NCBI GenBank assembly: GCA_965223545.1
Contig: OZ245006.1
Location: forward strand, 6,400,001 to 6,464,000
DNA length: 64,000 bases
Reading direction: 5' to 3'
DNA from: Planctomycetota bacterium
Lineage (GTDB): Bacteria > Planctomycetota > UBA1135 > UBA2386
Positions within the stretch are counted from its first letter, which is position 1, and every line of letters begins with the position of its first letter. This document shows, piece after piece, positions 19,692-28,706 of the stretch. Under the pieces are notes generated by a model. It was not told where the DNA came from. It did not search any database and was given only the letters and a program-made list of their open reading frames with translations. The position numbers and the translations under genes are program-made.

Positions 19692-20657
19692 TCAGATGCC
19701 GCGGTGCATCCACCAATCGACAGCGCCGAACCAAAGACGCGATAGCCCCTTGCGGAAGCGTTCCGAGTTCCCGCCGAGGTACATTCCACGGGCTGCCCAC
19801 AGCGCGTAGCCGGCGGCCCAATGCAACAGGGCTTGCTCCTCGTCTCGGGGAAGACCCAAGGAGTGCACGACGCGCGCGTACTCGGTGCGGGCCCAGGCGA
19901 CGTTTTCGCGGTAGTGCCGGAAGGTGGGCACCAAGTGAACTCCGAACAGCGCGCGCAGATTCTGGTGATCGCAGAAGATCCGCTTGCCCTCGGCGATCGG
20001 TGTTCGGTTGTGCGAATGGATGACCGCACTGCGCGGCTCGAACACGATGCGGTGGCCGCCGAGGATCAGGCGCTTGCCGAACGCGACGTCCTCGCCGAAA
20101 CGCCGATGGCCAAAGGGGTGCCGTTGCCATGCCGCGCGGCGCACGCTGCCGGCGACGTTGTCGTAGGCGCACCGCTGCAGGCGTTGCATCGGCTCCAGGG
20201 TGGCGAACTCCGCTTCGCTGGCGGGCTCTTGGACGGCGGGCTCGGTCTTGCCGGCGGTCCATTCAGCCAGCCGCTTCGCGATGAACGGATTGCAGTCCGG
20301 GCGGGGAATCTGCCGGCAGTAGGCCGCACCGACGGCGGCATCGTCGTATGCGGCGAGCAGCCGCGATAGCCATTGGTCGTCGGCAGGCGTGGCGTCCTGA
20401 GTCAGCAGCACGATGACGTCACCGCGCGTGCTGGCGATGGCCTGGTCCCGGGTGGCGCCGTGGTTGAACTCCGCTTGGTCGATCACGGTCACCGAAAAGC
20501 CGTGCCGCTGCAGGCACTCGACGGTGCCGTCGGTCGAGCCGCTGTCGATGGCGACCCGCTCGAGCTGCTGCGCGCCGGGCTGGCGATCGACGGCGGCAAG
20601 CACTTCGCCCAGCAGCGGCATGCCGTTGAGGGTGGGGATGACGAGGCTTGCCTGCAC
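19692..20657 (-). CDS. Glycosyltransferase family 2 (rhamnosyltransferase-like)
   Basis: VIPTLNG, DSGSTDGT, FNHGATR, LTQDA and HSHN motifs. Confidence 0.88.
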   Translation of the reverse strand: MQASLVIPTLNGMPLLGEVLAAVDRQPGAQQLERVAIDSGSTDGTVECLQRHGFSVTVIDQAEFNHGATRDQAIASTRGDVIVLLTQDATPADDQWLSRLLAAYDDAAVGAAYCRQIPRPDCNPFIAKRLAEWTAGKTEPAVQEPASEAEFATLEPMQRLQRCAYDNVAGSVRRAAWQRHPFGHRRFGEDVAFGKRLILGGHRIVFEPRSAVIHSHNRTPIAEGKRIFCDHQNLRALFGVHLVPTFRHYRENVAWARTEYARVVHSLGLPRDEEQALLHWAAGYALWAARGMYLGGNSERFRKGLSRLWFGAVDWWMHRGI

Positions 20658-20779
20658 GCGGTCTATCAGCGTCGCGCAAAGGCGTGCGCGACGCCAGCTT
20701 CGGCCCGTGCTCGCCACGACCGTGGTCGAGAGCTACCTTGGTCCACCGCCGCGCCGCCGCGCGGCCCGTCCGGCGACGC

Positions 20780-21985
20780 ATGCACATTCTCGTCTTGACC
20801 CCGCAGCCGGTCGACCGACTGGACCACGGCGGCCGCATCCGCACCCGGATGCTCCTCGACGCCGCGTTGACGATCGGGCGCGTGACGGTGGCCGCGCCGC
20901 GGCCCGAGGTCGACGAGGCGGGAGTCCGGGAACGCATGCGCGCGATGGGCGTGCAGGTCGAGTGGCTGCCAGCGGGGGCCGGCGTCTCGTCGTGGTCGGC
21001 CAAGGTGCGCTGCTGGGCGAGGGGTCGCAGCCAAGTGATGACGCGGCGCTGGGGCGCGGGCGCCCCGCAGGCGGTGTCCGCCTTGCTGGCTCGGGGGGTC
21101 GACCTGCTGGTCGCCGATGCGAGTCACGCGCTGCCGGCGTTGCCGGAGTCCTTGCCGGTGCCGTTGGTCGTCCAGTTCCACAACATCGAGTCGGCGGTGC
21201 TATCGCGGCGGGAAAGCGTGCGCCGCGGCCCCGCCGAGCTCTTCGTGCGCAGGATCGAAGCCCGTTGCACGCGCGCGTTGGAGAGGCGGTGGGCCGCGCG
21301 CGCGGCGGTCTGCGTGCCGGTTTCCGAGCTCGATGGGAGGCGGTTGCGGGAGGTGGAGTCGCGGGCGGTGGTCGAAGTCGTGCCCAACGCGGTCGCGGTC
21401 GAGACCCTGCCGCTGTTGCCGCCGCCGCCGCGCGGTGCGCCGCGGTTGCTGTTCGTCGGCAGCTTCGATTACCCACCCAATCGCCAGGCCGCTCTCGAGC
21501 TACTGCGCGAGCACCTGCCCGTTCTCGCCGCGTCGCATCCGGACCTCGAGGTCTGCCTCGTCGGCGAGGACCCATTCGGCGAGATCGCCGCGCACGCGTC
21601 GGCCGCCGGCGCGACCGCCACGGGCAGGGTCGATGACCTCGAGCCGTACTACCGCGCGGCCACCGCGGTCTACTTGCCGATCCGGTCGGGCGGTGGGACG
21701 CGGATCAAAGTGCTCGAGGCGATGGCCCACGGTCGGCCGGTGCTGTCGACGGCGGTGGGGGTCGAGGGCTTGGACTTGGCGCCGGACCGTCACTACTTGC
21801 GTTTCGAGCGCCCCGCCGAGGGGGTCGCGGCGGTCGACGCGCTGCTGCGCGACGGCGTCGCCGACATGGTCGAGCGCTGCCGTCAGCTGGTCTGTCGCGA
21901 CTTCGACCAGAGGGTCGTGGTCCCGCGGCTCGCCACCATTCTGCGCCGTGCCGTAGAGGGCGGCGTGCACCAGCGGGAGCGGTGA
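20780..21985 (+). CDS. Glycosyltransferase family 4
   Basis: HNIES, FVGSFDYPPN and GGGTRIKVLEAMA motifs. Confidence 0.88.
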   Translation: MHILVLTPQPVDRLDHGGRIRTRMLLDAALTIGRVTVAAPRPEVDEAGVRERMRAMGVQVEWLPAGAGVSSWSAKVRCWARGRSQVMTRRWGAGAPQAVSALLARGVDLLVADASHALPALPESLPVPLVVQFHNIESAVLSRRESVRRGPAELFVRRIEARCTRALERRWAARAAVCVPVSELDGRRLREVESRAVVEVVPNAVAVETLPLLPPPPRGAPRLLFVGSFDYPPNRQAALELLREHLPVLAASHPDLEVCLVGEDPFGEIAAHASAAGATATGRVDDLEPYYRAATAVYLPIRSGGGTRIKVLEAMAHGRPVLSTAVGVEGLDLAPDRHYLRFERPAEGVAAVDALLRDGVADMVERCRQLVCRDFDQRVVVPRLATILRRAVEGGVHQRER

Positions 21986-22185
21986 CTCAGCGCGGCCGAG
22001 GCCGCAACCAACTCGGAGCATTCCGCGACCCGAGCGTCGGTCGCGGGTCCCGCGGTCGCCGGCGGCCGCCCTGAGCCCAGAGGCCAGTGTTGTCTTCGAG
22101 CCTCCGGGAGCTGCGTTGTCGAAGTTCCAGCGACATCGAGCCTTCCGAAAGGTTGTCGCCGCGCGAAGATTTGCGGACCCTGAGG
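21986..22185. repeat. Degenerate copy (200 bp) of the 195-bp palindromic repeat
   Basis: Starts CTCAGCGCGGCCGAGGCCGCAAC and shares CTGAGCC, GAGCCTCCGG and GTTGTCG blocks with 37271-37859. Confidence 0.75.
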
Positions 22186-22234
22186 CTCAGCGCGGCCGAG
22201 GCCGCAACGGTATGTGTGGTTCCATGATCTGCGA

Positions 22235-22565
22235 AGCTAGAGTTCTCCACACCCGTCGCGCCGTAGCGGTGTGGAAGACTCGCGCGATGGTGCAGCCGCA
22301 GGAGTCGTGTCGGGAGTCTGGTCATCGGCCGCAAGAGAGCTTAGGGTCCCCCGGCGTGCGACGGAGAGGTTTCGCGATCTGCCGCAATGGTGGCGCTTCG
22401 AGCGGCCCCTCATTTGGTTCTGCGACTCTCCTCCCGCGTGGGGGACCCGATTTAGGAGATTGGCGGCGTGAGAAATCACGGCCCCGAAACACGAACCGTT
22501 TTGGCGACTCGCCTCCTCAGGCGGACTGCGCGGGTAGGGAGAGTCCTCTCGTCGACACTCACTCG
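22235..22565 (+). ncRNA. Candidate bridge RNA (ends approximate)
   Basis: Nested stems including GGGTCCCCC 22344-22352 / GGGGGACCC 22440-22448. Loop segments match target left (22381-22388), target right (22413-22419), donor left (22452-22460) and donor right (22489-22499). Confidence 0.82.
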
Positions 22566-22582
22566 TTGAACATGGAGGGGAC

Positions 22583-24085
22583 ATGAATCGATTCGTTGGA
22601 TTGGATCTCGGCTTGAGGAGCAAGCACCGAGCCGTCGTTCTGGATGGTGCGAAGTCTCGGGGCAGACCGTTTTCAGTCGAGAACAGCCGTGAGGGTATTG
22701 ACCTTCTGCTGCGCCGTGCACAGGAAGGTGCCGAGGGTCCGGTGAGCTTCGTGATGGAACCAACGGGGTTGGCGTGGCTGCCCATCGCGGCGCACGTGAA
22801 CGCCGCAGGGTTCCAGATCTACGTGAGCAAACCACAGAAGCTGAGCGACCTGCGGAAGTTCTATAGCAAGCACACCAAAACCGACGTAGTAGACGCCGAG
22901 GCCGCTGCGCGTCTGCCGCAGATGGATCCAAAGGGCGTCCACCAGCTGCGTGTTCCAACTGCCGACGAGACGACGATCCGTCGACTCGTGAAGCGGCGTG
23001 AGCGGTTGGCGCGCGAGCTCAGCGACCACAAGCGTCGTGTGCACGCGATACTGGTACTGGCGAATCCCAGCCTCATGAAGGCCTTGGGGGCAGAGAAGTT
23101 CAGTGCCGCTAAGATGGGGTTTCTGCGGCGCTACGTCGATCCGGTGAAAGCGGTCGGCCTTGGGAAGAGTCGCTTGGAGCGCTTCTTGACGAAGCGATCC
23201 AAGGGAACGCATGACCCGTGCTTGGTCGACCGCGTGCTCGAGTCCTGCCGACAGGCCGCCGAGTACTACGCTGAGCTGCGAGCTGCGGGGCAGATGCCGT
23301 TCGACTACGAGGCCATCCAAGAGGATGTGGTGTACGAGCTGGATGAGATCGAGCGCAAGAACACGGACGTTCGCAAGCTCGACGCAAAGATCAAGAAGCT
23401 CTACCTGGGCGTCGATCCTGACCGAACACTCGAGCAACTGCGCGGCGTCGGTCCCACGATCGCTGCGGCCATCGAAGCCTTGGTAGGCGACATCGCGCGG
23501 TTCTCGAACGGCAAGAAGTTCGTGAGCTACTGCGGACTGTGTCCACGCCGGAAGCAGACGGGCATGAGCGACCCCTCGATGCCAATCACCAAAACCGGCC
23601 AACGAGTACTCAAGAAGTACCTCTACCTAGCAGCTGACGTCGCTCGCCAGTGGGATCCGGATTTCGCGGCGTACTACGCTCGCCGCTACGCCGCAGGTGA
23701 TCACCACAACCTCATCCTCATCGCATTGGCTGGCAAGATGGCGCGCCGCGTCTACGCCCTCCTGAAGCGTCGCGACAGCCAGCGCGCCGATGACAAGCCG
23801 GCGTCGACGCAAGTCCGCTACGTCCTGCGAGACGCCGACGGCAACGAGCTCACGAAGGTTGCCGCGCGCGCGCTCATCGCAGCCAAGTTCACGCGCAGCA
23901 TCGTCGCGCCACAGCGGCATGAGCGCGACCAACGGCGACAGGGACGAGTGGGGACTCCGACGACGAGGGACTTGAGTGGCCGCCCAATGGACGCCACAGG
24001 CCTGGCCGTGGAATCCCCACGTCAACCTCACCCGATCGGTGATCTCATGCAAGAACACTTCCCTGGTCTTGTGGAAGAGTCCTGA
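22583..24085 (+). CDS. IS110-family recombinase/transposase (DEDD RuvC-like plus Tnp20 domain), 500 aa
   Basis: GLD8, ME59PTG, KTD101VVD104A, LRGVGP and GLCPRRKQTG motifs. RBS GGAGGGG upstream. Confidence 0.95.
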   Translation: MNRFVGLDLGLRSKHRAVVLDGAKSRGRPFSVENSREGIDLLLRRAQEGAEGPVSFVMEPTGLAWLPIAAHVNAAGFQIYVSKPQKLSDLRKFYSKHTKTDVVDAEAAARLPQMDPKGVHQLRVPTADETTIRRLVKRRERLARELSDHKRRVHAILVLANPSLMKALGAEKFSAAKMGFLRRYVDPVKAVGLGKSRLERFLTKRSKGTHDPCLVDRVLESCRQAAEYYAELRAAGQMPFDYEAIQEDVVYELDEIERKNTDVRKLDAKIKKLYLGVDPDRTLEQLRGVGPTIAAAIEALVGDIARFSNGKKFVSYCGLCPRRKQTGMSDPSMPITKTGQRVLKKYLYLAADVARQWDPDFAAYYARRYAAGDHHNLILIALAGKMARRVYALLKRRDSQRADDKPASTQVRYVLRDADGNELTKVAARALIAAKFTRSIVAPQRHERDQRRQGRVGTPTTRDLSGRPMDATGLAVESPRQPHPIGDLMQEHFPGLVEES

Positions 24086-24127
24086 ACAAGCCGTGCACAC
24101 GCGATGTCGAGCCCCAGCGAAAACCCC

Positions 24128-24133
24128 TTGACA
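24128..24133 (+). promoter_or_regulatory. -35 hexamer in the IS right end (half of the circle-junction promoter)
   Basis: Perfect TTGACA. In the circle it lies 17 nt before TATGTG (22211-22216). Confidence 0.7.
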
Positions 24134-24325
24134 TGACTTAGGAGATATCAAACACGGATGCCGCTCTTGCCGGAGCGGCTTGGAAGGTCCGACCCATCCG
24201 CCGCCGCGCTGAGCCCGGAGGCACTGTCTCTCGGAGCCTCCGGCGCGGCGGCGACGTTGCCATGTCGGCGGCGTCGCCTCGAGAATGTTGTCGAAGCTCG
24301 ACGGTTCGAGGCGCCGGAGGCTCAC

Positions 24326-24451
24326 TCAGCCTTCGGTTGGTCGGCGCACCTGACGCAGCGCGTACCAGCAGACCAGGTAGACGGCGCCGAGCGGCCGCCC
24401 GATGCGCCGCGCGATCCAGCGGACGTAGCGTTCGAGCGGCAATCGCCTCAC
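24326..24451 (-). CDS. 41-aa small basic/hydrophobic protein (MRRLPLERYVRWIARRIGRPLGAVYLVCWYALRQVRRPTEG)
   Basis: GTG start overlaps the upstream TGA (GTGA). GGAGG RBS lies 7 nt upstream. Too short for the supplied ORF track. Confidence 0.6.
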   Translation of the reverse strand: MRRLPLERYVRWIARRIGRPLGAVYLVCWYALRQVRRPTEG

Positions 24452-26082
24452 GCCGATTCCTCCGCCGCGGCGCGGCACAACGCGGCGACGGCCTCGCGGT
24501 CGTCGGGGGCGCCGACCGCGCAGCGGAGTCGCGGTCGCAGCGCCGCGATCGTCTTGGCCTCGCGCTCGCGCGCGCAGAGCACGCCGCCGAGCCGCGCCGT
24601 CAGGCCTCGCCAGAAGTGCAGCTCGCGCATGTTTTCCAGACTCGCCTCGGGCTCATCGAGCGCCGGCAAGACCAACAGGCAGCTCTCGTCGATCAGCGGT
24701 CGGGGCGCGCAGGCCAACGCCCACGGGTCGCGGAAAACGACCGCGTCGTAGTCGGTCTCGCGAAGGGCGTCCCGCACGCGTTCGGTGGCGAGGACGTCCC
24801 CGGTCGCGCCCCAGTAGCGGCGTGGAACGAGGCCGAACACGTCTTGCGTCGGCGGCTCCGCCCTGCTGGTCAGCGGGATGGTGTGTTCGATCCAGACCGT
24901 ATCGTCGGGGGCCGGCGTCGGCTCCGGCTCGTCGCAGCCGACGGACAGGATGCGCAGTGGTTGCCGCAGCCGTGGATCGATCGTTCGGCGGTGACGGCTG
25001 ACGTGGTTGGCGACCCGCAACACCTCGCGGTCGCTGCGGGCGTGGTGGATCCGGCTGCGCGTGCGCGCCCACCACGCGCGCGGCAGGCGGGGCAGCGTCG
25101 CCAGCAGCGCCGCGGCTTGGTCCCGCGCGGACAGCTGGGCGCGGTCCTTGAGCAGGTTCCACGGCAGCAGCAGCGCGCGCCGCAGCACCATGTCGGGCGC
25201 GGTGACACTGCGCCAGAAGAGGAGCTCGCGGTTGCGGCGGTCCAGCCGTCGCACGCGCTGGCGTCCCAGCACGGAGACCGTGGTGCCTTGAAAGCCGTGA
25301 TGGGCGATGGCGCCGGGTTCGTACAGCACGCGCCATCCGCGTCGCCATGCTTGGTAGGACAGGCTCATGTCCTCGACGTAGCACGGGTGGTACAGATCCT
25401 CGAAGCCACCGAGCGCCAGATATTTCGCCCGGTCGAACGCGCTGCTGCCGCCGCCGGCCCACATCGCCGGCACCAGGTCCGTCGCCTGGTGCTGCACCTG
25501 GACTTGGTGGATCGCGCCGGCGCGAAACTCCGCGCGGGTCAGACCGGTCTCGAAGCGCGTGCCGTCCATCTCGATGCGGGCGGTTACCGCGAACACGTCG
25601 TTGGCACCGAACCGGGCGAGCAACCGCCGCAGGAAGTCCCGTTCGACGCGCATGTCGTTGTTGACGAACACGAGGATGTCTCGGGTCGCCGCCTCGACGC
25701 CGGCGCGGTTGCCGCGGATGAAGTAGCGGTTGGTGTCGAGCTCGACGAGCCGCACACCTTCGTGCGCGCGCACGACGTCGCAGGACTCGTCCTCGCTGCC
25801 GTTGTCGACCACGATGATCTCGTGGTCCCCCGGCGTCGCATCCACCGCCTCCTGCAGCGGTGGCAGGATGGCCCGCAGGTAGGCGGCGCGGTTGTAGTTG
25901 AGGACGATCACCGACGCGTTGTGCGCCGGGGGCTCCGGCGCGGGGCGCTGCCGCGCGCGCAGCATTCCGACGACCGGCGTCGCGATGAGATCGAGGACCA
26001 GGGTGACTGCGGCGACGGCCCAGCCGTAGAGCGCGACCGGCGGAATCAGCACCAGTCCCAGTGCTGCCCGCACGCGCTTCAA
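24448..26082 (-). CDS. Glycosyltransferase family 2 with N-terminal TM segment and C-terminal extension
   Basis: VIVLNYN, VVDNGSED, FVNND and YVEDMSL motifs. TTGA overlap start. Confidence 0.85.
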   Translation of the reverse strand: MKRVRAALGLVLIPPVALYGWAVAAVTLVLDLIATPVVGMLRARQRPAPEPPAHNASVIVLNYNRAAYLRAILPPLQEAVDATPGDHEIIVVDNGSEDESCDVVRAHEGVRLVELDTNRYFIRGNRAGVEAATRDILVFVNNDMRVERDFLRRLLARFGANDVFAVTARIEMDGTRFETGLTRAEFRAGAIHQVQVQHQATDLVPAMWAGGGSSAFDRAKYLALGGFEDLYHPCYVEDMSLSYQAWRRGWRVLYEPGAIAHHGFQGTTVSVLGRQRVRRLDRRNRELLFWRSVTAPDMVLRRALLLPWNLLKDRAQLSARDQAAALLATLPRLPRAWWARTRSRIHHARSDREVLRVANHVSRHRRTIDPRLRQPLRILSVGCDEPEPTPAPDDTVWIEHTIPLTSRAEPPTQDVFGLVPRRYWGATGDVLATERVRDALRETDYDAVVFRDPWALACAPRPLIDESCLLVLPALDEPEASLENMRELHFWRGLTARLGGVLCAREREAKTIAALRPRLRCAVGAPDDREAVAALCRAAAEESA

Positions 26083-26309
26083 CCCGCCGGCTCGTCCTTG
26101 AGCTTGGCCAGCTCGGCCTTCGCCGCGGCTAGCTGCTCGAGCACAGCCAGACCCTGCGCCGCCATGGCGTCGATGCGTGGCTGCTGCGCCTCGCGCTGTT
26201 CGCGCGCGGCCAGGGCTGTGCACAACGCCGCGAGCTGCTGCTCGATGCGGTCGAGCTGCGCTTGCATGGCGTCCAGGCGTTGTTCGAAGCGAGCGATGCG
26301 GAAGACCAC
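26079..26309 (-). CDS. Small coiled-coil hypothetical protein
   Basis: Heptad-like EQRLDAMQAQLDRIEQQL. It fills the operon gap and its stop overlaps the next start. Start uncertain. Confidence 0.55.
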   Translation of the reverse strand: MVFRIARFEQRLDAMQAQLDRIEQQLAALCTALAAREQREAQQPRIDAMAAQGLAVLEQLAAAKAELAKLKDEPAG

Positions 26310-26331
26310 CAGACTGCGAAGGGGCGTGAAG

Positions 26332-27675
26332 TTAGCGTTCGGCCGCGTCGGGCACCACGTGTGAACCGCCGCCGGCGTAGACGGCGGCGAAGCGATCGTA
26401 GTTGCCGCTGATTCGGCCGGCAGGAAGTGGGCGAAGGCGGGCGAGGCGGCTCGGGTCGGCCAAGCAGCGGCGCAGCACCTCGCGCAGCGCGGCGGCATTG
26501 CCGGCCTCGAACAGATAGCCGTTCTCGCCCTCGCGGATCAGCTCGGACATGCCGCCGAGATCGGATGCCAGGACGGGCACACCGGCCTCGAAGGCCTCGA
26601 GGATCACGAAGGGCGTGTTCTCGTACCAGGTCGACGGAACGATCAGCAGGTCGGTGTCGGCGAGGACGGCGCTGATGCGGTCGCGGTCGAACGGGCCGGG
26701 GAACGCGATGCGCGCATCGCTCGCCGCCCGCTCCCGCATCTGCGCGATGTAGTCGGCGAACATCGGCTCTTCGGTGCGACCGTGGACTTGCAGCCGCAGG
26801 TCTCCCGCCAGCTCGCGCACCGCGTCGACGACGAGGTGGGGGGCCTTCCAGGGCGACAGCACCCCGGCGAACGCGAGCCGCAGCGGGGTGCGCGGCCGCT
26901 CCACCTCGACGCGCTGCACCCGGCCCGGCTCGAGCCCGTAGGGCTCGACCTGTAGCCGCTCGCGCGGCACACCGTTGCGGGCGAACATGTCGGCGAGGAA
27001 GCGGGACGGGGCAAAGACGGCGTCGGCCAGGGCCAGCCGTCGCAGCTGGATCTCGCGCCGATGCACGAGTGCTGCCAGCTGTTCCGGCTTGTGCCAACTC
27101 GGTCGGCCCTGCCCGCGCGCCTTCGCCAGCTGCAAGGCGAGCGCGGCGTGGCCCTCCGGCACCGCTGCGCCGAGGTGCGGATAGTGGCACGGGACGCAGC
27201 CGAGGCCGCCGTCGGGAGGCCCTTCGCACAGCGTGCCGTCACTGCGCAGCAGAGTGAAGCGCGGGCACACGTACCAGAAGTCCATCAGGTGCACGGCCGT
27301 GCGCACGCCGTGGTCGCGGGCGGTCTCGATCCAGTCGGAGCCGAGGTTGCGCAAGTGGAAGAAGTGCACGGCGTCGGGGCGCAGCGACTCGAGCACGGAG
27401 CCGAACTTCGCCGCGAGCAGCGGGTTGTCGTAGTCGCGCAGCACTTCGTTGGGAGCCAGGCCCCACCAGTAGCGCAGCCGCAGCACCGGGGTGCCGTCAT
27501 AGCTCTCTTCCCGCAGCTCGAGCGGTGGGTTGTCACAGCCGAGGTCGGGGTCCAAGGCGAGCACCGTCACCTCGTCGCCCCGCCGCCGCGCCTCTCGCGA
27601 CACGGCCAGCACGTACTGCTCGGTGCCCGAAAAACACTCCGGGAAGTACTGGTGGACGACGTAGAGCAGCTTCAC
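26332..27675 (-). CDS. Glycosyltransferase family 4
   Basis: HQYFPE..SGTE, DFWYVCPR and PSTWYENTPFVILEA motifs. Confidence 0.9.
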   Translation of the reverse strand: MKLLYVVHQYFPECFSGTEQYVLAVSREARRRGDEVTVLALDPDLGCDNPPLELREESYDGTPVLRLRYWWGLAPNEVLRDYDNPLLAAKFGSVLESLRPDAVHFFHLRNLGSDWIETARDHGVRTAVHLMDFWYVCPRFTLLRSDGTLCEGPPDGGLGCVPCHYPHLGAAVPEGHAALALQLAKARGQGRPSWHKPEQLAALVHRREIQLRRLALADAVFAPSRFLADMFARNGVPRERLQVEPYGLEPGRVQRVEVERPRTPLRLAFAGVLSPWKAPHLVVDAVRELAGDLRLQVHGRTEEPMFADYIAQMRERAASDARIAFPGPFDRDRISAVLADTDLLIVPSTWYENTPFVILEAFEAGVPVLASDLGGMSELIREGENGYLFEAGNAAALREVLRRCLADPSRLARLRPLPAGRISGNYDRFAAVYAGGGSHVVPDAAER

Positions 27676-28706
27676 GACAGGATTGCGCGATAGGCGGCGT
27701 TCATCTGCTGGCCGACGATCGGCCACCGGTAGTGTTCGTCGACGCGCCGGCGCGCCAACGCGCCCAGCTGGTCGACGCGGCTCGAGTCGTCGCTGAGCGC
27801 TCGCAGCGTCTCGACGGCGGCATCGACGTCGCCCGGCCCGACCAGCACTCCACCCTCGCCCACGTACTCAGGGGTGCCACCGGATTGGGTGCTGACCACG
27901 GGCGTGCCGCAAGACATGGCCTCGAGCACCGCGTTGTTGGAGGTGGCGAGCTTCAGTGGCAGAAACAACGCCGTGGCCCGGCGGTTCTCCTCGAGCAGCT
28001 GCTCGTCGTGGATGTTGGACATCACGCGAGTGTTGCGGCAGCCGTCGAACTGGGCGGCGTGCTGCTCGAAAGTGACGACGCGGAAGTGGATCCGCGGCTC
28101 GAGCTCGTTGAGGCGCCGAATGGTCGCCACCACCATGTCGATGTCGCGCAGCCATTGGCCGACGACCAAGAACGTCGGCTCGGGCCACCTCTCGACCTCG
28201 GGGTCGGGGGCCCAATACGCGTCGTCGACGCCGTGCGGCACGTGGTGGATGCGGTTCTCGGGCAACAGCTCGCGGAAGAACGGCAGCTGCGAACGGGACA
28301 TGATCACGACCGCGCTGGCGCCCTTGATGTAGCGCAGGTCCTCGACGTGGGATGCCAAGAACTCGGGTGGCTGGTGGAACGAGCCGACGATGCGGTTGTT
28401 GAGCTTCGGCTTCCACAGCGAGCTGATGCGTAGGTCGTTCTCGGCGTAGAAGAAGTGGAACAGCGTGCGCACCGGTTTGAGCATGCGCAGGCAGATCTCC
28501 AGCTCGCGTCGCATCTGTGGTCCGCCGTACCAGTTTGAGTGATAGTACGGCAGCTTGCGGATGCGTCGCCACGAGACCTTGTCCACCATGCGCTTGGCCA
28601 GCCCGCCGCTGACGAACGCCTCGCCATCGACGTACTTCGCGAGCTGGTCGTAGCCCGAGAACCGCGCGTGGTGGTCGATGTGGTTGTAGATGAGGCGGAC
28701 AGCCAT
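27672..28706 (-). CDS. Glycosyltransferase family 4
   Basis: VPHGVD and NNAVLEAMSCGTPVV motifs. Confidence 0.88.
   Translation of the reverse strand: MAVRLIYNHIDHHARFSGYDQLAKYVDGEAFVSGGLAKRMVDKVSWRRIRKLPYYHSNWYGGPQMRRELEICLRMLKPVRTLFHFFYAENDLRISSLWKPKLNNRIVGSFHQPPEFLASHVEDLRYIKGASAVVIMSRSQLPFFRELLPENRIHHVPHGVDDAYWAPDPEVERWPEPTFLVVGQWLRDIDMVVATIRRLNELEPRIHFRVVTFEQHAAQFDGCRNTRVMSNIHDEQLLEENRRATALFLPLKLATSNNAVLEAMSCGTPVVSTQSGGTPEYVGEGGVLVGPGDVDAAVETLRALSDDSSRVDQLGALARRRVDEHYRWPIVGQQMNAAYRAILS

Follow-up and report, generated by a model that had tools for sequence, protein, structure and literature searches.

A distant IS110-group insertion sequence from a planctomycete genome, with a predicted left-end bridge RNA and unequal cores

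IS621 of Escherichia coli, an insertion sequence (IS) of the IS110 group, is described as encoding a recombinase with DEDD RuvC-like and Tnp domains between a long left end and a short right end that holds a -35 box, and as inserting into a repeated extragenic hairpin element (PMC11208160, PMC11208158). Its bridge RNA is reported to have a target loop and a donor loop that carry a left and a right target guide (LTG, RTG) and a left and a right donor guide (LDG, RDG), the 5' guides being sense and the 3' guides antisense (PMC11208160). Here we analyse a 1,940-bp IS110-group element on the plus strand of a 64,000-nucleotide stretch of DNA (henceforth the window; contig OZ245006.1, positions 6,400,001 to 6,464,000, assembly GCA_965223545.1) from a Planctomycetota bacterium with a genome of 8.1 Mb and 70% G+C. 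The element resembles IS621 in its domains and fold, in the arrangement of its ends and predicted guides and in the kind of site that it occupies. A model that had seen only the letters of this stretch (the sequence-only reading) had called the locus a complete IS110 RNA-guided recombination system. The anatomy behind that claim stands, as the domains, the left-end RNA, the guide order, guides that track the flanks and 11 genomic copies were all recovered, and comparative evidence supports the interpretation placed on it; that the system is also intact and programmable we infer.

The element differs from IS621 in several respects. Its recombinase shares ~20% identity with that of IS621 and has 500 rather than 326 residues, with a threonine at the position of the IS621 nucleophile S241; its core is A-C/T and unequal between the two sides, in place of CT; its LDG ends before the core; and its close relatives have, in place of a simple internal loop, a long-range helix that closes the donor loop and encloses the target arm. 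The same differences separate it from ISCro4/IS622 (9t56; 10.1101/2025.05.14.653916), which, compared at the protein level, is the solved structure closest to it in sequence (9.2e-17) and matches its fold as well as IS621 does. ISPpu10 from Pseudomonas putida is described as targeting an intergenic repeat whose copies have a GC-rich stem-loop on the 5' side of the site that is paired (10.64898/2026.03.19.712850), as here, except that one of our 11 insertions lacks a hairpin. The top-strand copy-out and insertion reported for CazIS110-1 of Caloranaerobacter azorensis (10.1101/2025.10.25.684509) predict the arrangement found in our element, with a target core on the left and an element core on the right, but CazIS110-1 is an experimental system whereas the element described here is known from its sequence footprint alone. 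Finally, IS1111-group elements belong to the same recombinase family, and many are described as binding the donor through several loops (PMC11208160); their RNA lies in the right end, whereas that of our element lies in the left end, which measures 374 nt against 63 nt for the right end.

Taken together, the evidence below makes it very probable that positions 22209-24148 of the window hold an active or very recently active IS110-group IS that finds its site through a bridge RNA made from its own left end. The element is a well-supported new and distant example of a class, the bridge-RNA elements, that is already published; the kind of system is not new. Its subfamily may already be present in published lists of IS110 orthologues (PMC11208160 supplement). 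Bridge recombinases are being developed into programmable tools for DNA insertion, and whether they naturally use one strand or two, and cut or copy, is actively debated. To this field the element adds a distant and apparently recently active orthologue from a genome of 70% G+C, with four readable guides and ~100 natural targets; the parts of specialist interest are its unequal cores, its threonine and the GGTAT scars described below.

Genomic copies, boundaries and target site

The sequence-only reading had suggested mapping further genomic copies. A genome-wide search recovered 11 copies in 11 different places with 0 differences over 1,940 bp, all inserted in a common 12-bp site, GCCGCAAC-CAAA. 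At each of the 11 left junctions GCCGCAAC is followed by GGTATG, and at each of the 11 right junctions TTAGGAGATAT is followed by CAAA. Contigs from two other public runs carry the empty site, with 22208 joined straight to 24149. The insert is therefore 22209-24148, including the right core AT at 24147-24148, and not 22208-24147 as first proposed: the element itself was correctly recognized, and its coordinates shift by one base. These boundaries also draw on 95 empty sites in the genome, where the uninterrupted sequence GCCGCAACCAAA occurs 95 times and its T variant GCCGCAATCAAA once. The empty site, which the sequence-only reading had deduced, is thus observed both in the genome and in the empty-site contigs. 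Of the target once written as ~GCCGCA-A-[T/C]CAAA the site holds and the core is corrected to AC, the T variant being found only once in the genome. By reading, the termini GGTATGTG and GGAGATAT are no inverted repeats of one another.

A palindromic hairpin, GCGGCCnnGGCCGC, has the target on its 3' side, and intact sites are mostly found within a hairpin repeat resembling repetitive extragenic palindromes (REP). Exact copies of GCGGCCnnGGCCGC are followed by AACCAAA at 90 genomic sites and by AACGGTA at 10, the latter comprising 8 full copies of the element and two GGTAT scar sites. Eight of the 11 insertions are at the exact hairpin, and the other three are at a one-base variant, at a different hairpin and at a site with no hairpin; the hairpin-less insertion still has the 12-bp site. 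The 12 bases that all targets share are the exact union of the footprints of LTG (GCCGCAA plus U) and RTG (reverse complement AACCAAA).

The two scar sites are otherwise intact targets that read GCCGCAAC-GGTAT-CAAA; they lie outside the window on contig C1, at ~611,325-611,337 (plus strand) and ~537,452-537,464 (minus strand). What both carry at the insertion point is the element's initial five bases, no more and no fewer; TAT also forms the last three bases of the right end. These sites look like 5-bp scars, left either when the element was lost between its terminal TAT repeats or when an insertion was aborted. They had prompted an alternative boundary in which the element starts at GTGTGG and has an AT core on both sides. 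We rejected this boundary for two reasons: relatives whose flanks are unrelated still start with GGTAT, and RTG runs from one flank into the other with no GGTAT between them (9 nt in the related element L050).

The element is flanked on both sides (22150-22208 and 24149-24200) by sequence of a repeat family that has >100 matches, some of them arranged in tandem arrays spaced at 195-201 bp. These arrays sit elsewhere in the genome, and Tandem Repeats Finder reported no repeats over 20500-26000 of the window. The genome holds ~180 GCGGCCnnGGCCGC hairpins (360 when both strands of the palindrome are counted), and at five exact-hairpin sites the hairpin is followed by AACCAAC. An unoccupied variant site, GCCGCAAC-CAAC, is found at 22001-22012; it belongs to another repeat copy, ~200 bp before the element.

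Predicted guides and the left-end RNA

Relatives of the element were collected by searching a large protein collection with the recombinase, which gave 103 matches (best 73% identity), mostly on contigs of ~2 kb, and 79 metagenome loci were retrieved. A scan of genome contigs gave 8 loci (best 42% identity), and 60 related genomes contained no relatives at E 1e-30 or better. With this family we could follow the suggestion of the sequence-only reading that guides and flanks be compared across homologous left ends. The four segments that it had picked out, each pair flanking a hairpin, are present at their positions (Table 1; the fourth originally spanned 22489-22499), and their order LTG-RTG-LDG-RDG is confirmed, with the 5' guides sense and the 3' guides antisense.

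The decisive evidence for the guides is their covariation with the DNA across the family. The longest run of identity between an LTG and its own left flank averaged 6.13 nt over 31 rows, 20 of which reach at least 6 nt, against a mean of 3.07 nt between LTGs and the flanks of elements with unrelated LTGs (866 pairs, 6 of which reach 6 nt). Likewise, in the nine elements for which both flanks were available, the reverse complement of RTG matched its own reconstituted target over 5, 7, 7, 9, 8, 8, 4, 7 and 7 nt, and cross-comparisons (64 pairs) gave at most 4 nt. On the donor side, the nucleotide immediately 5' of GGTAT is complementary to the variable RDG base in 27 of 31 rows (C-G in 16, T-A in 6 and G-C in 5). 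The four rows that do not fit are L065; L068, whose boundary is unclear; L070, a pattern artefact that fits by eye; and L112, in which no RDG base was called. The core bases of RTG and RDG agree in 41 of 42 rows.

Two of the earlier guide assignments change in detail. The proposed 11-nt RDG, ACACGAACCGT, is complementary to 22207-22217 at 9 of 11 positions, and only its last five nucleotides, ACCGT (22495-22499), are conserved and covary; the ACAC...GTGT matches of its first part (22489-22494) are specific to this copy and are not backed by relatives. The donor, read before with a single A as its core and with CGGTATG beyond, becomes TTAGGAGAT-AT-GGTATG. The LDG segment, also TTAGGAGAT as DNA, is identical over 9 nt to 24138-24146; the last U of LTG lies opposite the target C and would form a U.G pair with the bottom strand. 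Covariation of the left donor is weak: across the family, the right end (GAyTWAGGNGAT plus two bases) hardly varies and neither does LDG, and at their variable position only part of the elements agree.

We also asked how often matches of the observed lengths arise by chance in 20,000 shuffles of 22230-22582. The left-target match (8 nt) was reached in 1,077 shuffles, the match to the reverse complement of the target (7 nt) in 2,428, the right-end match (9 nt) in 50 and the match to the reverse complement of the left end (5 nt) in 14,866; all four together were reached in 0 of 20,000. The longest left-target match in the left end is a second 8-nt copy, GGCCGCAA, at 22327-22334, rather than LTG. 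It lies upstream of the target arm in a stretch that relatives lack and is longer than the LTG match, and its length is the one reached in 1,077 of the 20,000 shuffles.

Structure in the left end was probed with RNAalifold on the aligned left ends of 13 elements, which gave a consensus of 55 pairs, 26 of them with compensatory changes. A covariance model, R1, was built from this alignment after two predicted helices that bury LDG and RDG had been deleted. R1 matched 58 of 88 sources, all on the plus strand and just upstream of the recombinase gene, with one match in the window and 11 in the whole genome, one per copy. In the 58-row alignment, which was fitted to R1 and therefore favours the structure, 90.6% of cells hold standard pairs, against 69.7% in shuffles and 42-48% when the partners are slid, and 44 of 46 pairs have changes on both sides. 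A covariance model of the left end, another proposal of the sequence-only reading, thus finds the RNA in most sources and has stems that covary.

The RNA would be laid out as a target arm, made of basal stems, an internal loop with LTG and RTG and a hairpin, followed by a second hairpin with the LDG strand on its 5' side and the RDG strand on its 3' side. All target-arm stems have compensatory changes in the family, and, counting inward from 22355/22440, the window row has standard pairs at 13 of 13 model positions, but not at 22353/22442, the next one outward. In close relatives, the segments preceding the target arm and following RDG form a 15-bp long-range helix, which would place their donor loop at a three-way junction. 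The family consensus keeps LTG and RTG open; folded by itself, the left end of this copy is predicted to pair them partly with one another. The global minimum free energy (MFE) fold of the whole left end has a z-score of -1.93 and is uninformative on the loops. The 5' stem-loop upstream of R1 aligns as CCACAG ... CTGTGG in 11 of the 13 relatives' left ends and is missing from L060 and L068. A CGCGCGG-like element (22529-22535) is conserved downstream of the donor loop; it is similar to the 3' strand of the target-arm basal stem, varies with that stem among relatives and may be an alternative pairing partner of it.

Several observations weigh against this picture, in addition to the fitting of the 58-row alignment to its own model. 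Guide matches within one sequence alone are moderate evidence. L065 breaks the core rule and the left boundary of L068 is unclear; the metagenome contigs are possibly chimeric, and related elements are not independent. LDG stops 2 nt before the end of the element and leaves the core uncovered, unlike what is described for IS621, and where the left donor and LDG vary at all, at a single position, they agree in 5 of 8 elements only. The register of LTG relative to the hairpin shifts by up to 2 nt among relatives. The long-range closing helix is poor in the window, where 7 of 15 model pairs form. An alternative closing duplex there, at -47.4 kcal/mol against -41.6 +/- 4.4 kcal/mol in shuffles (z ~-1.3), was not supported. 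In the single-sequence fold, the partial pairing of LTG with RTG leaves a mean unpaired probability of 0.21, against 0.32 overall. Rfam 15, searched at E up to 10, returned four chance-level matches and no bridge-RNA family. The residue at the nucleophile position of the recombinase is threonine, not serine.

Recombinase, joined ends and strand transfer

The recombinase matches PF01548 (DEDD_Tnp_IS110, 1.9e-24) and PF02371 (Transposase_20, 4e-21) of Pfam, and its residues 4-397 match the NCBIfam model NF033542, 'IS110 family RNA-guided transposase', with 208.7 bits (cut-off 140). A phmmer search of solved structures retrieved ISCro4 and, at 2.2e-13, IS621. The AlphaFold model of the protein (predicted local distance difference test score 87.6) has its best fold matches in IS621 (8wt6, 8wt9) and ISCro4 (9t56), with template modelling scores by target of 0.74-0.79. 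The residues D8, E59, D101 and D104 are kept in 36-38 of 38 aligned relatives. T326-G327 (codons 23558-23563) aligns with S241-G242 of IS621; in the same 38 relatives the first of these columns holds threonine in 16 and serine in 22, and the adjoining glycine is invariant. A C-terminal extension of ~100 residues (398-500; 23774-24085) lies outside the NCBIfam model. In the AlphaFold model it forms a confident hairpin-plus-helices at ~413-455 and is disordered at 456-480. Proteins of the subfamily have similar lengths, ~500-545 aa. The threonine at the nucleophile position and the extra C-terminal domain offer handles for enzymology.

IS621 is described as having a promoter across its joined ends (PMC11208160), and a comparable promoter can be read here. 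When the ends are joined, TTGACA of the right end would be followed, after a 17-nt spacer that includes the GG of the left end, by TATGTG (22211-22216), an arrangement that would parallel that of IS621. Of 12 distinct right ends, 9 match the -35-like hexamer at four or more of its six positions, and TAT[GA]NN stands at +3 to +8 in 27 of 27 distinct left ends. No sigma-70-like site was found inside the integrated left end, and no joined ends or circle junction in the contigs of runs X5, X6 and X7, which carry other organism labels.

In all 11 copies the left core is AC, supplied by the target, and the right core is AT, borne by the element, so that the first base is common and the second differs. 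A left C with a right T is also found in the relatives L050, L052, L054 and L064, which represent three different targets; T with T occurs in L055 and L057 and C with C in L070, and a left T with a right C occurs in 0 rows. In IS621, by contrast, an invariant CT core is reported on both sides, its T almost invariant (PMC11208158, PMC11208160). The guides of our element would tolerate both cores, since the G in RTG and RDG pairs with C or T and the U that ends LTG pairs with G or A. Cleavage of the top strands after the core, followed by their exchange, would leave the target core at the left junction and the element core at the right; if no further exchange takes place and replication completes the process, all copies would have this arrangement. 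A two-strand exchange with unequal cores would instead leave both junctions heteroduplex, and both arrangements would be expected among the descendants. Top-strand-dominated copy-out and insertion have been reported for CazIS110-1 and IS621 (10.1101/2025.10.25.684509, 10.64898/2026.08.31.748434). That the core asymmetry is a natural footprint of such a top-strand transfer pathway we regard as an evenly balanced proposition. The unequal cores would be a natural marker of which strand's core lands on which side, and they make a single-strand model testable with the enzyme.

In the mechanism that we propose, joining of the ends would bring TTGACA and TATGTG 17 nt apart, from which the RNA would be expressed. 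Its first guide pair would read the 12-bp site GCCGCAAC-CAAA, and its second pair the right end (TTAGGAGAT) and the left end (the core and GGT). The recombinase-RNA complex would pair the target with the joined ends and exchange strands after the core; only the top strand would be transferred, and replication would complete the copy. We tentatively extend this proposal, at somewhat below even confidence, to a subfamily (~500-545 aa, with serine or threonine at the nucleophile position) that has no need for identical donor and target cores. In this subfamily the second core base, C in the target or T in the element, would be read by G.T or U.G wobble, the pattern of a target core on the left and an element core on the right would be the footprint of top-strand-only transfer followed by replication, and the GGTAT scars would be by-products.

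A canonical two-strand exchange through a Holliday junction, as in IS621, could give the same cores if the C/T difference came from biased mismatch repair, from selection for the right-end T or from one founder arrangement, and cryo-electron microscopy states of IS621 with bottom-strand cleavage are described (PMC11208158). Selection for the T is a plausible co-factor because T 24148 and G 22209 give the TG of an extended -10 just upstream of the -10-like hexamer, one base before TATGTG in the joined ends. Moreover, the four asymmetric relatives have near-identical donor loops and are thus not fully independent. We nevertheless think this explanation rather unlikely: a left C with a right T is found in 11 of 11 copies and in four relatives with three targets, and the reverse never, whereas unbiased segregation of heteroduplex would give both, and the two preprints cited above describe excision and insertion as dominated by the top strand.

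A second alternative is that the left-end RNA is a mere structured mRNA leader, that the protein itself reads the REP hairpin and that the guide-like matches are incidental. The preference for the hairpin fits it (8 of 11 insertions at exact GCGGCCnnGGCCGC, one at a one-base variant and one of the remaining two at another hairpin), as do the reported contribution of the target stem-loop to recognition by ISPpu10 (10.64898/2026.03.19.712850) and the fact that three of the four single-sequence guide matches are individually not rare. It is made very improbable by guides that change with the flanks across elements of differing targets, by the hairpin-less insertion that keeps the 12-bp site and by the exact coincidence of the 12 conserved target bases with the LTG and RTG footprints. 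We give as little credence to the view that the element is a dead relic whose copies were spread by some other process and whose threonine marks an inactive enzyme. Although that residue replaces a serine called highly conserved (PMC11208160), 16 of the 38 aligned relatives share it, which suggests that it is tolerated and is no mark of decay, and 11 copies without a difference over 1,940 bp at 11 sites, with precise junctions and an intact reading frame, speak against a relic. The reading that we prefer, of a recently or still active element guided by its own left-end RNA, is the one under which the features of the locus are named in Table 1.

Feature coordinates and surroundings

Table 1. 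Features of the element and of its target site, in window coordinates
Feature	Position	Strand	Basis or remark
IS element	22209..24148	+	11 identical copies; 95 empty sites; empty-site contigs
REP-like target hairpin, GCGGCC-GA-GGCCGC	22192..22205	+	3' arm overlaps the left target
Left target GCCGCA and target-derived core AC	22201..22208	+	11/11 left junctions
Left terminus GGTATGTG	22209..22216	+	GGT is the right donor predicted to be read by RDG; GGTAT[AG] starts relatives' elements
5' stem-loop, CCACAC ... GTGTGG	22246..22275	+	Paired in MFE fold; outside model R1
Predicted bridge-RNA body (R1 match)	22337..22552	+	157.1 bits, E 2e-37
Predicted target-binding arm	22355..22440	+	Basal stems 22355-22376 with 22421-22440, enclosing loop and hairpin
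LTG GCCGCAAU (DNA GCCGCAAT)	22381..22388	+	Sense copy of left target and core; family test
Target-loop hairpin	22389..22409	+	95.7% of cells paired in family; 9/9 pairs standard in window
RTG UUUGGUU (DNA TTTGGTT)	22413..22419	+	Reverse complement of AAC-CAAA across the empty site
LDG UUAGGAGAU	22452..22460	+	Sense copy of right-end positions -11..-3
Donor-loop hairpin, GAAA loop	22462..22485	+	98.3% paired in family; 8/8 pairs standard in window
RDG ACCGU	22495..22499	+	Reverse complement of core AC and GGT
Recombinase, 500 aa	22583..24085	+	D8, E59, D101, D104; T326-G327; C-terminal extension 398-500
-35-like TTGACA	24128..24133	+	15 nt from element end
Left donor TTAGGAGAT and element-borne core AT	24138..24148	+	11/11 right junctions
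Right target CAAA	24149..24152	+	11/11 right flanks

Pieces of the element were also met in contigs of runs X5, X6 and X7, with 0 to 3 differences (none in most of the pieces listed), and in many of these contigs the sequence switches at a GATC to something unrelated. In the window, the element has as its neighbours long open reading frames on both strands of a very G+C-rich region (19692-21985 and 24448-27726).

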